Notes under the pieces: model-generated
Database searches by the model: none
What the model saw: only the letters and a program-made list of their open reading frames with translations
Told to the model about the DNA's origin: nothing
In this document: piece after piece, positions 1 to 9,843 of the stretch
How the letters are laid out: each line of letters opens with the position of its first letter
Position numbering within the stretch: the stretch's first letter is position 1
Program-made: the position numbers and the translations under genes
NCBI GenBank assembly: GCA_963555755.3
Contig: OY820905.2
Coordinates: 3,232,001 to 3,296,000 of the forward strand
Direction: 5' to 3'
Length of the DNA stretch: 64,000 bases
DNA from: Nitrospirales bacterium
GTDB taxonomy: Bacteria; Nitrospirota; Nitrospiria; Nitrospirales; UBA8639

Positions 1-413
1 TGCAGATTAAAGGTCTTAGACAATTCCTCGAATGTCAAAGGATGCATGGTGCGGTATAACGCTCTTCCTCCAAGTAGATTTGCTGCGCCGTGCCGAAGTT
101 TTCGGGCAGAGGAGCCGCATAGAATAAATGTGAGTTTCGGCTTCTGTTCCATCAGTGAGTGGATGACATCAAGAATTTTGGGGACACGCTGTACTTCATC
201 AATAAATATTGTCGAGGATTCTTTGAGTTCTTCGACCTGTTCCCTTAGCAGGTTAGGATTTTTTGTGTACGAGAGTTGGAGCTCAGGATCGAGCAGGTCG
301 ATTGTCAAATTCGCGTTCTCCTTTTTTAAAAGCGTGCTTTTCCCAACCTGGCGTGGGCCAAACAGAAAGAAGCTCTTTTTGGGCAATTGATTCTCCAAAG
401 TTCTTGAATACAT
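1..413 (-). CDS. AAA-family ATP-binding protein (AAA_14/DUF4143 type), runs off the window start
   Basis: Not in the ORF track. Manual translation from ATG at 413 gives MYSRTLENQLPKKSFFLFGPRQVGKSTLL (Walker A), then IFIDEVQRVP (Walker B) and ILCGSS...LLGGRA. Confidence 0.85.
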   Translation of the reverse strand, partial: MYSRTLENQLPKKSFFLFGPRQVGKSTLLKKENANLTIDLLDPELQLSYTKNPNLLREQVEELKESSTIFIDEVQRVPKILDVIHSLMEQKPKLTFILCGSSARKLRHGAANLLGGRALYRTMHPLTFEELSKTFNL

Positions 414-454
414 AATTGTTAATATACCGTGCAAATTAACATGATATCAAGCAA

Positions 455-600
455 AATGAAGGGAAAGGAAAAATGAACAATGGTAAATGAAAAGTGAAAA
501 ATGGAAATAAAAATTTTGGACACCCAATTTTTCATTTATCATTTTTAATTTCCCTCCATCATTTTTCATTTTTCACTTTTCATTATTCATTTATCACTTA
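455..600. repeat. Heptamer array pair: A-rich (aaatgaa/aagtgaa) followed by complementary T-rich (ttttcat/ttttcac)
   Basis: 7-nt periodicity visible directly; the two halves are inverted relative to each other. Confidence 0.9.
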
Positions 601-617
601 GTTCAGGAGGTTTCGTC

Positions 618-1331
618 ATGAAGTCGTTAACGCGTATCGTATTATGTATGTTTGTCCTAGCGGTGGCAGTCGGATGCGCCTCAACCAAGGTCACCAAGCG
701 CGACTCGAAGATCGGCACGGAAAAGATTGCTCGGCCCGATCGTATTTATGTGTATCCCTTTGCGGCCACACCTGCCGACATCCCAACCTGGTCCGTTTCC
801 GCAGGCCGGTATGCTGAAAGCACCACACCACAAACGCCAGAGCAAAGCGAGATGGGTCGAAACCTGGGCGTCCTCGTGGCGAAGGCATTGGTCACGGAAA
901 TTCAGAAGATGGGACTTCCAGGATTAAGGGGTGCCAGCTACACCGTTCCGCGAATCAACAACATTATGATCATAGGGTATTTTGAAGCGGTCGAAGAAGG
1001 CAGTACGGTCAAACGCCTCTCACTTGGTTTCGGTTCCGGGGCCACAGAGTTAACGACAGCCGTGGAGGGCTACCAAATGACCCCTGAGGGCCCGCGCCTT
1101 CTTGGATCGGCCGAGCTCCAATCCGGCGGAGGAAAAACGCCTGGTTTGATTGTTCCTATTGCGGTACTCGCCGCCACCGCTAATCCGATCGGGCTTCTTG
1201 TTATGGGAGCGATGAAAGTGCGTGGTGAGATGACAGGAAGCAGTAAGCTCGAAGGTGCAGCCAAACGAACGGCCGAGGCCATTGCTGATCGGCTACGGGT
1301 ACGATTCAAGGAACAGGGGTGGATTCGGTAA
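618..1331 (+). CDS. Lipoprotein, DUF4410-like
   Basis: Strong RBS AGGAGG, lipobox AVGC, motif RLSLGFGSGA; paralogous to 3439-4184. Confidence 0.75.
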   Translation: MKSLTRIVLCMFVLAVAVGCASTKVTKRDSKIGTEKIARPDRIYVYPFAATPADIPTWSVSAGRYAESTTPQTPEQSEMGRNLGVLVAKALVTEIQKMGLPGLRGASYTVPRINNIMIIGYFEAVEEGSTVKRLSLGFGSGATELTTAVEGYQMTPEGPRLLGSAELQSGGGKTPGLIVPIAVLAATANPIGLLVMGAMKVRGEMTGSSKLEGAAKRTAEAIADRLRVRFKEQGWIR

Positions 1332-1665
1332 ATGAAAAATAATAGGGGAAATTAAAAATGATAAATGATAAATGAACAATTATGGTGGAAAATTTAAAAA
1401 GGAACAATGATAGGGGAAATTAAAAATGATAAATGATAAATGAACAATTATGGTGGAAAATTTAAAAAGGAACAATGATAGGGGAAATTAAAAATGATAA
1501 ATGATAAACGATTGGGGAAATGAAAAGTGAACAATGATAAATGAAAAATTATGGTGGAAAAATGAAAATTTTGGCCCCTAACCTTAATTTTTCATTTTTC
1601 ACTTTTCATTTTTAATTTCCCCTATTCTTTTTCACTTTTCATTTATCATTTTTCATTATTAATTT
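1330..1665. repeat. Heptamer array pair containing a 68-bp tandem repeat (about 2.4 copies, 1342-1508)
   Basis: taggggaaattaaaaatgataaatgataaa recurs at 1343, 1411 and 1479; T-rich complementary array at 1586-1665. Confidence 0.9.
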
Positions 1666-2019
1666 ATGAAGGATAATCCCCTTAAAGATAAGAGTTATAC
1701 ATTTGCAATTCGTGTTGTGAAACTATCTCAATTTTTACAGCAGGATAAAAAAGAGTTTGTGCTGAGCAAGCAAGTGCTTCGCAGTGGTACTGCAATCGGT
1801 GCACTCATTCGGGAGGCGGAGTTTGGGCAGAGTAAGGCGGATTTTGCTAGTAAAATGAGTATTTCATTGAAAGAGGCTAACGAAACGGAATATTGGTTGT
1901 CTTTGTTAAAGAACACAGACCTTATTGGTGAAGAGCAGTTTGTGAGTTTACAGTCTGACTGTAAGGAATTAATCGCGATGTTGGTATCAACGGTAAAAAC
2001 GGTAAAAAATGAAAAATGA
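1666..2019 (+). CDS. Four helix bundle protein (23S rRNA IVS protein / Avd-like family)
   Basis: 117 aa with family motifs LSKQVLRSGTAIGALIREA, SKADF and LKEANETEYWL. Confidence 0.92.
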   Translation: MKDNPLKDKSYTFAIRVVKLSQFLQQDKKEFVLSKQVLRSGTAIGALIREAEFGQSKADFASKMSISLKEANETEYWLSLLKNTDLIGEEQFVSLQSDCKELIAMLVSTVKTVKNEK

Positions 2020-2192
2020 AAAGTGAAAAATGAAAAGTGAACAACTAAAAATGAACAATGAAAAGTGAAAAATGAAAAATGAAGGTTAGGGGCCAAAATT
2101 TTCATTATTCATTTTTAAATTTTCCACCATAATTTTTCATTTATCATTATTCATTTTTCATTTCCCTTATTATTTTTCATTTTTAATTTTCT
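2005..2192. repeat. Heptamer array pair; largely the reverse complement of 1515-1665
   Basis: 2057-2105 is the reverse complement of 1562-1610 with one mismatch, including the non-periodic core aggttaggggccaaaatt. Confidence 0.9.
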
Positions 2193-2195
2193 GCT

Positions 2196-3191
2196 ATGCA
2201 AGACAAAGTCGTCAAATACTCCGTTCTCTTCATCGCCCTGGTACTGGGGGCGCACGTGCTGCAGACGCTGGCGCAGGTGCTTCGGCCTCTGGCTATTGCT
2301 GTACTACTGCTGTTCGTGTTCACACCGCTGGCGCGCTACTCGAAGGAGAAGGGCATCCCGGTGTGGCTCACGTTCTCGGGAGCACTCGTGGCAGTGGTCC
2401 TACTCCTGAGCTTCGCCGGTTCCTTCCTCCACGTAGACGACATCCACCTGCAAGACAAAATTCCGCAGCTCCAGGAGAGGATCCGCAGCGATGGCGACGG
2501 TCTGCTGGCGACCGCGCTTCGGTTGGGGCTCGACCAGAGCTTTACACCGGAGAAGCTGAGCAACCTGGCAACGGCCACTGCCAGTCTAGGACTGGCGGCG
2601 GTTCGCACGCTGATCAGTGAGTCGCTTCTGGCTTTGATTCTGCTGATGTTCCTGGTGCAGTCCCGCGCACTGCTGGTGAGTGCCGTGGAGCGCAAATACG
2701 GTGCGACCGGTGTGGAAAATCTCGAGGCGATCGTGCGCAAAATCGAGGGGGATGTGGTCGCCTATCTCGGGACCAAAACCGCCATCAGCTTCGGGACGGC
2801 AGTGGTAAGCGGCGGCGTCCTTTTCCTGTTCAGCGCCAAGGCCATCGTTATCACCTCCCTGCTGATCTTCCTCCTGAATTATATTCCGATCATCGGTTCG
2901 CTGATCGCCGTCCTTATCGCCTTCGTGGTCTATGTCGTGAGCTTCGGCCTGACGGCGACGGCGGGTTGGATGCTGCTGGCGATGATGGCTGTCCAGATCC
3001 TGTTTGGCAGCATCCTGGAGCCGAAAATCGCGGGAAAGCAGCTGAATATGTCGCCGATCCTCATCGTCATCAGCCTTTATGTCTGGGGATGGATCTGGGG
3101 CATCACCGGCATGCTGCTATCGGTGCCGCTGACTATCTTCATCCTTGTCGCCGTCAAGCACGTCGCTGGCACGGAGAAAAATGAAAAGTGA
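2196..3191 (+). CDS. AI-2E family transporter
   Basis: Multi-TM protein with LLNYIPIIGS, ILEPKIAGKQLNMSP and WGWIWGITGMLLSVPLT motifs; visibly more GC-rich than its flanks. Confidence 0.9.
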   Translation: MQDKVVKYSVLFIALVLGAHVLQTLAQVLRPLAIAVLLLFVFTPLARYSKEKGIPVWLTFSGALVAVVLLLSFAGSFLHVDDIHLQDKIPQLQERIRSDGDGLLATALRLGLDQSFTPEKLSNLATATASLGLAAVRTLISESLLALILLMFLVQSRALLVSAVERKYGATGVENLEAIVRKIEGDVVAYLGTKTAISFGTAVVSGGVLFLFSAKAIVITSLLIFLLNYIPIIGSLIAVLIAFVVYVVSFGLTATAGWMLLAMMAVQILFGSILEPKIAGKQLNMSPILIVISLYVWGWIWGITGMLLSVPLTIFILVAVKHVAGTEKNEK

Positions 3192-3380
3192 ACAACGAAA
3201 AATGAAAAGTGAACAACGAAAAATGAAAAGTGAACAATGAAAAATGAAAAGTGAACAATGAAAAATGAAAAGTGAACAGTGAACAACTAAAATTGAAAAG
3301 TGAACAGCGAACAATGAATAGTGAAAAATTAACCATGCGGATATCACAACAATGAAAACCTATTTTTCATTTATCATTGT
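3177..3380. repeat. Heptamer array with 21-bp higher-order unit (aaaaatgaaaagtgaacaaYg)
   Basis: At least four near-identical 21-mers from 3177; short complementary T-rich piece at 3363-3378. Confidence 0.9.
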
Positions 3381-3438
3381 GGCGGGCTCTAATCAATAAG
3401 TCACCAGTTTCATTGGGCCAGAAAATTGGGGGAGACTA

Positions 3439-4184
3439 TTGATGGTGCATCGAAGTTCATTGAAGGTTCCAAGTCGTTTCTTGAAATATTGTGTTCTGGG
3501 TCTGAGTGCCACCATTCTCTTTGGATGCGCGAAAGCATTGGTTGTGCCGATCAATCCTGCCAGTGAGGGCTTGCCAAAACCCGACCATATTGTGGTCTAC
3601 GATTTTGTGGTCACGTCTGGAGATGTACAGCTCGATGTTGGTGTTGGAACCAAAATGCTTCGCGATGCGAAAGGCACCTCTCAGACTGCAGAGGAAATCC
3701 GTGTCGGCCGTGCGGTGGCCGAGGCGCTTTCCAAAAAATGGTTGAGGAACTTCGGGGAAAGGGCATTACGGCCTATCGAGCGCGTTTTACTCCCCCTGCC
3801 TCTTCAACCACAGCATCAATTAAAGGGCAATTCAGGCAAATCGATCAGGGAAACCGAACCCTTCGGACTATGGTGGGTTTCGGGTTTGGAGGGAGTAAGC
3901 TGGGGACAAGCATCCAGTTCTATCAGGGAAAGGGACGGGAGGCGAAATTGGTCGGAGAAGCGGAAACCATGACTGAAAGCAGTTTAAAGCCCGGCATTGG
4001 CGTTCTCTTTCCAGTTGGTGCTGCGGCTGGGACTGTGGCGACGGCTGCTGCGGTCAGTGGTACGACCACTGTCGCCATGGAGAAATTTTTCGCGACCGTT
4101 GAAGCAGATGCCAAACGTACTGCCGAGGCTATTGCAAAAAGAATTATCAACTATTACGAGCGTCATGGGTGGCACAGGCGGTAA
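3439..4184 (+). pseudogene. DUF4410-like lipoprotein, frameshifted at A6 run 3733-3738
   Basis: The 5' part of ORF 3439 (lipobox LFGC) and ORF 3738-4184 together align with the paralog at 618-1331. May be a sequencing indel. Confidence 0.75.
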
Positions 4185-8752: not shown

Positions 8753-9015
8753 ACACATCTTCAAAAATCCTAAAAACGGCAGTTACATGACCATTGGCCC
8801 ATTAATGCTTCGACCCTTCGGCGAGCTCAGGACTCAGCACGAACGGGGTTCCCCGGCAATCACCCGTTGGGTGAGAGTCAGCTCGCCCTGCGCGCCGCGG
8901 CTTCCGCAGCAGTCGAAGGAATCCGAGAGTTCCCACTGGCCTTTTTAAGATAATTCGGTTGTAGCAGCAGCATCTCACTCGCCTGCGCACTTGCGCGTTG
9001 TAGCGGCTACAGCGT

Positions 9016-9205
9016 GGGGCTGTTGAATAATTCACGTCAATAGCCAATACACGCTCCAGATGAGCCCCACATCGTCAGTGGGAGGGAATGTTCAAAAAAG
9101 TCCGTCCAGCAAGGCCGCAGCCCTTTTGACGCGCGGAGCGTACTCATAGTACGTGAGCACGGCAAAAGGGCGAGAACGCCGCTGGCGGCTTTTTTCAACA
9201 TTCCC
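9016..9205. mobile_element. MITE family A
   Basis: Ends GGGGCTGTTGAA / TTCAACATTCCC; 5-bp direct repeat AGCGT at 9011-9015 and 9206-9210; multicopy core CAGCAAGGCCGCAG...GTACGTGAGCAC. Confidence 0.85.
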
Positions 9206-9710: not shown

Positions 9711-9843
9711 GTAACTACTCAGGTGGATAGGCTGAAGGCCGAAGGCTTTTAGGAAGCAATCATGCGTGATAATACAAAACCTCGGACATTATGAGTAATA
9801 GCCTTCAGTCTTTAGCCTTCAGCCTAAATACCTGAGTAGTTAC
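9711..9843. mobile_element. MITE family I (133 bp)
   Basis: 14-bp TIR GTAACTACTCAGGT; 8-bp TSD AATTAGTT at 9703-9710 and 9844-9851; internal heptamer (aggctga) inverted arrays. Confidence 0.85.

Follow-up and report, generated by a model that had tools for sequence, protein, structure and literature searches.

TIGR02436 is a widespread family of four-helix-bundle proteins whose structure is solved and whose function, to our knowledge, is not known, and we know of no accepted origin for the heptamer arrays that lie between bacterial genes. Here we describe a locus in a 64,000-nt stretch of a Nitrospirales genome (the window; contig OY820905.2, positions 3,232,001 to 3,296,000) at which a gene of this family stands in a chain of genes separated by hairpins of heptamer arrays. 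Its closest described counterparts are the intervening sequences (IVS) of 23S rRNA in Coxiella and Leptospira, which encode the same family (S23p/PF05635), have complementary termini around the open reading frame (ORF), carry variable numbers of tandem heptamers before the start codon and are lower in GC than their host (PMC4990558). Complementary termini, heptamers before the start codon and a GC content below that of the host are found at the window locus as well. However, the unit in the window lies between protein-coding genes (DUF4410 and AI-2E) instead of inside an rRNA gene, and it is flanked on both sides by a complete hairpin, with three others belonging to the same chain. This enclosing-stem architecture is built like that of ORF-bearing 23S IVS, outside rRNA, and is neither an integron nor a diversity-generating retroelement (DGR).

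Two other described systems share features with the locus. Intergenic heptamer repeats of Beggiatoaceae, Cyanobacteria and Bacteroidetes are likewise abundant, near start codons, in core operons and patchy, and the direct repeats are viewed as possible translational-regulator sites; the available text of that study makes no link to inverted pairs or to the PF05635/TIGR02436 family (PMC4679880). Doublets of repetitive extragenic palindromes that form hairpins (REPINs), which are associated with tyrosine transposases (RAYTs), are multi-copy extragenic inverted repeats whose sequence groups match a few single-copy genes (PMC3116915). Similarly, the genome studied here has 43 gene-less hairpins, and three heptamer types that each flank a four-helix paralogue. 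In contrast to REPINs, the arms in the window are tandem heptamer arrays with a gene inside the loop, and the linked gene is not a RAYT but encodes a 117-aa four-helix bundle of PF05635 (this comparison covers the linked gene, not RAYTs elsewhere in the genome). We found no published description of a four-helix/inverted-heptamer unit outside rRNA in a search that left subscription papers and supplements largely uncovered, including the supplementary tables of PMC4679880, which may bear on it. The explanation that we favour, with a probability of roughly 0.6, is that the hairpins are gene-less remnants of a junction-colonising element with the order A-arm, gene, T-arm, that they were rewritten by template switching, and that they act as direct repeats which delete single genes.

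A chain of heptamer hairpins around four genes

Bare positions are those of the window, positions preceded by C1 are those of the contig, and G000 is the source genome. The chain consists of a 562-aa gene, hairpin H(-1), an AAA_14/DUF4143 gene, H0, a DUF4410 gene, H1, the four-helix gene, H2, an AI-2E transporter gene and H3, with the five heptamer hairpins occupying consecutive gaps around four genes. Every spacer is a hairpin of its own, made of a purine-rich arm (A-arm), a short core and a T-rich arm (T-arm). The A-arms begin at, or provide, stop codons, and the T-arms finish at a start codon or ribosome-binding site. Period-7 arrays in the window cover 462-514, 527-600, 1330-1568, 1587-1665, 2005-2083, 2096-2190 and 3176-3327.

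The four-helix gene (1666-2019, plus strand, 117 aa, GC 0.39) is preceded by H1 (1330-1665), which runs from the DUF4410 stop to the four-helix start codon with an A-arm at 1330-1568, a core at about 1569-1583 and a T-arm at 1584-1665; the A-arm holds a 68-bp tandem repeat (2.6 copies, 1330-1508). It is followed by H2 (2005-2190; A-arm 2005-2083, core 2084-2098, T-arm 2099-2190), whose A-arm provides the four-helix stop codon. The protein scored 103.1 bits for TIGR02436 (cut-off 24) and 93.4 bits for PF05635 (cut-off 33.8) and matched five chains of PDB 2RLD (E 4e-39), in agreement with the family assigned to it in an earlier reading of the letters alone (the original prediction). Avd, the DGR accessory protein, is a structural homologue of PF05635 (PMC10053308). 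Binding of the window protein to heptamer arms is plausible from this homology; the arms would probably be bound by a pentamer of the protein, in the form of RNA or single-stranded DNA. As for a DGR, the protein hit only PF05635 and no bAvd at E <= 0.001, and none of the 35 RVT_1 matches of the genome lies within 170 kb of the chain, the nearest being about 175 and 310 kb away (template and variable repeats were not searched separately). Many of these 35 matches share the same score within sets, a pattern suggestive of group II intron expansion.

The original prediction had also described a specific inverted match around the four-helix gene. The heptamer arrays and the inverted matches are real. 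The match of 1562-1610 to the reverse complement of 2057-2105 was reproduced exactly (48/49), and the pairing proposed for 1515-1561 with about 2118-2166 was recovered as 45 of 47 positions against the reverse complement of 2120-2166; the left arm of this long inverted repeat thus spans 1515-1610 and pairs with 2057-2166. Further out, 1330-1410 and 2102-2182 match at 91%, and in the window allele H2 is an inverted copy of H1. With at most one mismatch, the H1/H2 inverted match extends over 50 nt, compared with 15-34 nt in the remaining 19 comparisons among the five spacers, and is therefore specific beyond periodicity, as had been claimed. The complementarity of 532-554 to 1346-1368 is likewise exact (23/23), but we rejected it as a specific pairing because 23 nt lies within this background (the H0/H1 inverted comparison gives 28).

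Folding of 1320-2200 as RNA gave a stable structure (-264.9 kcal/mol, z -11.2 relative to 20 shuffles) with the four-helix gene in the loop. The predicted IVS-like stem of about 150 bp in a protein-coding context therefore does enclose the gene, but it is specific to the window allele: it was found in one of four alleles, the inverted match being only 19-28 nt in the other three. These results bear on the possibility that the hairpins are selected RNA-processing sites, so that RNase III would excise the four-helix segment from the operon mRNA, the hairpins would tune their neighbours and turnover of the DNA would be a side effect. The stable fold is consistent with this, as are the Coxiella IVS, which combines upstream heptamers with a terminal stem of 28 bp and is cleaved by RNase III in vitro (PMC4990558), and the starts at 1666 and 2196, which come after T-arms and show no visible Shine-Dalgarno site. 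We nevertheless consider it unlikely, given the lack of the long stem in three of the four alleles and a gene-orientation context of the 43 hairpins that is near background, with divergent and convergent junctions represented about as often as expected (ORF calls were crude); moreover, cleavage could happen without being selected. No Rfam family matched 400-3500 at gathering score, sub-threshold matches being of miRNA type only, and a promoter scan did no better than chance and revealed no terminator-like site.

The other members of the chain are arranged in the same way. H(-1) (C1:3231178-3231265) lies 740 bp left of the window, beyond the minus-strand AAA_14/DUF4143 gene (384 aa; 5' part at 1-413, leaving the window to C1:3231259), and since this hairpin belongs to the chain, the AAA gene is bracketed too. 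H0 (453-600; A-arm 453-514, core, T-arm 527-600) stops just before the ribosome-binding site of the DUF4410 gene (PF14366; 618-1331, plus strand, 237 aa, GC 0.55). The AI-2E gene (PF01594; 2196-3191, plus strand, 331 aa, GC 0.59) has its C-terminal tail substituted by the A-arm of H3 (3176-3380), which has a long A-arm (3176-3327), a core and a short T-arm (about 3363-3380). A duplicate at C1:3158388-3159974 consists of DUF4410, a hairpin, a four-helix gene, a hairpin and a truncated AI-2E gene, with no hairpin upstream. A second DUF4410 gene at 3439-4184 is split into two ORFs near 3735 and corresponds to a single 256-aa ORF in L100, one of the related alleles described below; sequencing runs containing this strain showed no extra base at the split.

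Polarity of the family unit and gene-less hairpins in the genome

We surveyed the flanks of the best 80 of at least 557 relatives of the four-helix gene (59-92% identical), 70 of which were scored and 10 dropped for short flanks. Their record titles name Bacteroidota, Desulfobacterota, Planctomycetota, Acidobacteriota, cyanobacteria and others. With an arm pattern derived from the window's own heptamers and at least two units required, an A-arm was found upstream in 59 of the 70 loci, a T-arm downstream in 56 and both in 51 (shuffles, 0.3%), while the reverse arrangement alone, T upstream and A downstream, was found in none. At three or more units the corresponding numbers were 37 and 0. These counts make A-arm, gene, T-arm the unit of the family. 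Thus, heptamer arrays do flank four-helix genes across the family, as foreseen, but the proposed cassette of T-array, gene and A-array had the wrong polarity, the spacers being A-arm/core/T-arm hairpins. At the window locus the family-type arms are the outer ones, and those originally singled out are extra inner ones. Sediment contigs with a similar four-helix gene (loose ends in runs X8, X9 and X10) have a T-arm directly after the position of window 2000, and lend weak support to a derived origin of the inner arm.

At 19 of the 70 homologous loci there is an additional hairpin on at least one side. At one locus, L028, two loaded elements flank one gene, a predicted precursor state that would decay to the hairpin-gene-hairpin order. 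An Opitutales accessory cluster with DUF3604 and neighbours (L021 and L023, OY829953.1) has several four-helix genes, with empty hairpins at successive junctions, and forms another such chain. Another locus, L020, carries Caldithrix in its record title but, like L101, is on a contig of 6753 bp, and it is 85-95% identical to G000, pointing to mis-binning or transfer.

In the source genome, period-7 arrays number 110, as against 1-12 for each of periods 5, 6, 8, 10 and 11. Each of the four TIGR02436 genes is flanked by complementary heptamers, which fall into three types. Of the 43 gene-less hairpins, 42 have the purine arm first; by type, 27 are GCGTGAT, 6 A/T-rich and 10 others, and all six A/T-rich ones belong to the window chain or its duplicate. 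Other arrangements of the arms also occur. After fliM, a hybrid joins an A/T-rich A-arm to a GCGTGAT-type T-arm (C1:4435166-4435283), and at C1:4254892-4255031, between two co-directional genes, about 19 A/T-rich heptamers follow one another almost perfectly without a T-arm. A GCGTGAT-armed four-helix gene at C1:3789354-3790000 is apparently interrupted near its 5' end by a dispersed repeat of about 190 bp, which recurs at window positions of about 9015-9205 and within a mini-element at C1:3817687.

A further heptamer type documents loss of the gene from its arms. In G005 (L154), an intact PF05635 gene lies between GGCTGAA-type arms, and G000 contains 29 GGCTGAA-type left ends that match those of G005 and keep the first codons of the gene; for 26 of these a partner right end is present. 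The outer ends of these mini-elements match those of an IS66-family element of 2413 bp (12 copies), which encodes a PF03050 transposase, and 9 of the 18 scored mini-elements show at least 7 of 8 target-duplication matches. The GGCTGAA type thus combines IS66 terminal repeats with 8-bp target duplications, fits exactly the description of IS66-ended miniature inverted-repeat transposable elements or mobile insertion cassettes, and consists of internally deleted four-helix elements. One such mini-element of about 133 bp lies in the window itself (9711-9843), with IS66-type ends, a perfect 8-bp target duplication and the first four-helix codons kept. In the IS66 element at C1:311099-313511 (L160) and its 11 further copies, the second ORF (295 aa) matches Druantia DruA (PF14236) above cut-off.

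The same elements raise the question of whether the window chain was itself assembled from four-helix cassettes that moved by IS66-type transposition and later lost their transposon ends through decay. The 12 transposase-bearing copies, the recurrence of their ends on mini-elements and the target duplications are in line with such an origin, as is a four-helix paralogue at C1:3382193 with degenerate ends of IS66 type. However, with up to three mismatches no such ends were found at C1:3231001-3235500 (the window chain), at the C1:3159296 duplicate or at C1:3789638, and the arms of the chain reach right to the codons of the neighbouring genes. We therefore regard this origin as highly improbable.

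Finally, in 15 of 29 family loci (L129-L137, L139, L141-L143, L145 and L148) the four-helix gene follows the same response-regulator gene, which we take to be cheY-like. At this orthologous site the heptamer word varies between genomes, and G000 retains a short arm-like remnant; 5 of the 32 loci compared gave no match.

Single-gene differences between alleles

To look for empty sites, as the original prediction had proposed, we compared related alleles. One, L101, is the chain without the AAA gene, and another, L100, is the chain without the four-helix gene; each has a single hairpin at the join. The join in L100 follows a repeat of about 35 nt that is common to the H1 and H2 T-arms of other alleles. 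In the AI-2E tree, L100 clusters with G000 and L102, with L101 outside (100/99), and the DUF4410 tree places L101 and G000 as sisters, the AAA-bearing G005 falling outside (100/99). These positions make loss the simpler reading, and both differences are, from the sequences compared, most simply losses. Repeat-bounded presence and absence of single genes was thus confirmed in relatives, although not with the predicted cassette polarity. The locus is present in one of six same-genus genomes. We rejected G005 as a clean empty site, since DUF4410 is followed there by about 250 unrelated bases before similarity resumes at window 4100. Contigs from eight sequencing runs gave no usable evidence of excision. 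A lower contig depth over the AAA gene in X10 and X15 was set aside. Joints of 1618 to 2014/2020 in run X4 (depth of about 4 compared with about 300; sides of 33-34 nt) were not counted as excision, being likelier to come from another organism because a joint insert in the same run matches the L023 hairpin core.

In L102, AI-2E is 99.1% identical to that of the window, yet H1 and H2 align with those of the window at background level only. The window H0 resembles H2 of L101 and L102 (scores of 60-66 compared with about 20-40), and H1 of L101 corresponds to the paralogous H1 inverted by fold-back. In yeast, inverted repeats between which the polymerase switches template have their arms homogenised and their spacers inverted (PMC8604942), and template switching or gene conversion probably made the 49-bp repeat of the window recently.

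The original prediction had further suggested that AI-2E is captured cargo. AI-2E is plausibly foreign, judging from its GC3 of 0.77, and its relatives (68-75% identical) lie on contigs of 57-64% GC. However, heptamer arrays also occur at the fliM/fliN, fliN/fliO, fliO/fliP and fliP junctions, and as core fli genes are bracketed alike, bracketing is no marker of cargo. In L107, whose AI-2E is 98.1% identical to that of L101 in its 3' part, AI-2E keeps a longer native C-terminus, H3 is replaced by about 500 bp, and the gene adjoins gene X with no hairpin between; in L117, H3 lies about 40 nt further downstream. That AI-2E once stood beside its neighbour without a downstream hairpin argues against its capture as a cassette, as do allele differences that look like losses. 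Taken together, the original interpretation was partly supported: the protein family, the stem context, the family-wide flanks and the presence/absence of genes held up, and polarity and cargo did not.

In integron cassette arrays, too, imperfect hairpins stand between the genes; their attC core sites have the motifs RYYYAAC and GTTRRRY. The chain resembles them in its hairpin-separated genes and in the single-gene differences among its alleles, and one could envisage units of one gene and one hairpin that leave the DNA as circles and, directed by the four-helix protein, enter it again at a different hairpin, with AAA, DUF4410 and AI-2E as cargo. The placement of hairpins against stop and start codons or ribosome-binding sites, the one hairpin left at each empty join, the range of GC among the chain genes (0.39-0.59), the similarity of H0 to H2 of other alleles and the reversed orientation of AAA between two hairpins would all fit. 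Nevertheless, the five hairpins contain no attC core on either strand, and the sole full integron integrase, the only match above cut-off (C1:318997), is about 2.9 Mb distant; 6 kb left of the chain there is a fragment with a stop (C1:3225186, 20.8 bits, cut-off 265). The trees favour loss, the same kind of hairpin brackets the core fli operon, and L107 has AI-2E beside gene X without one. In addition, arrays were found at only one of seven tested AAA_14 paralogues (of 10 matches) and at none of three distant DUF4410 homologues, and were absent from 12 of 13 distant AI-2E loci, the remaining one having a different word. An integron-like array is, therefore, quite unlikely. It is very unlikely as well that this is a cassette system free of any integrase, in which the protein binds the arms and gene-plus-hairpin units loop out and re-insert, possibly via RNA and a host intron reverse transcriptase, shuffling accessory genes into operon junctions across phyla.

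Origin of the chain and its meaning

We therefore return to the proposal that the chain descends from a junction-colonising element. An element of A-arm, four-helix gene and T-arm would first settle at stop/start junctions, and loss of the gene from the loop would then leave an A/T hairpin. The arms, which are of low complexity, would be rewritten, flipped and duplicated as they switch templates or undergo gene conversion with one another, giving rise to the inner arms and the 49-bp repeat, and recombination or slippage between neighbouring T-arms would delete one gene plus one hairpin. The bracketing hairpins are likely gene-less leftovers of the selfish element of the four-helix gene, and the relatives that lack single genes between hairpins likely arose by recombination between repeats.

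Several observations weigh against this proposal. The cores of the five A/T-rich hairpins yielded no identifiable remnant of a four-helix ORF, so that the case for deriving these hairpins from the element is built on polarity and on the other heptamer type, and the window chain has neither the IS66-type ends nor the target duplications of that type. The purine-first order could instead reflect selection for terminator-like A...T structures. The variable heptamer word of the orthologous cheY-linked site shows that the protein is not strictly tied to one word. There is one empty allele per gene (L100 and L101), both on metagenome contigs, and the alleles in the trees are few and visibly mosaic, which leaves room for gene gains.

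The source genome and its relatives tie TIGR02436 to intergenic heptamers through loaded elements, internally deleted copies, 43 empty hairpins and a type carried by IS66 ends. To this the locus adds a five-hairpin chain, a correction of polarity and near-identical alleles with loss of single genes. As natural alleles that differ by single genes, the latter are ready substrates for tests of binding, RNase III cleavage and gene loss. Even if only passive recombination is at work, the locus still shows a selfish repeat rendering an accessory island modular.

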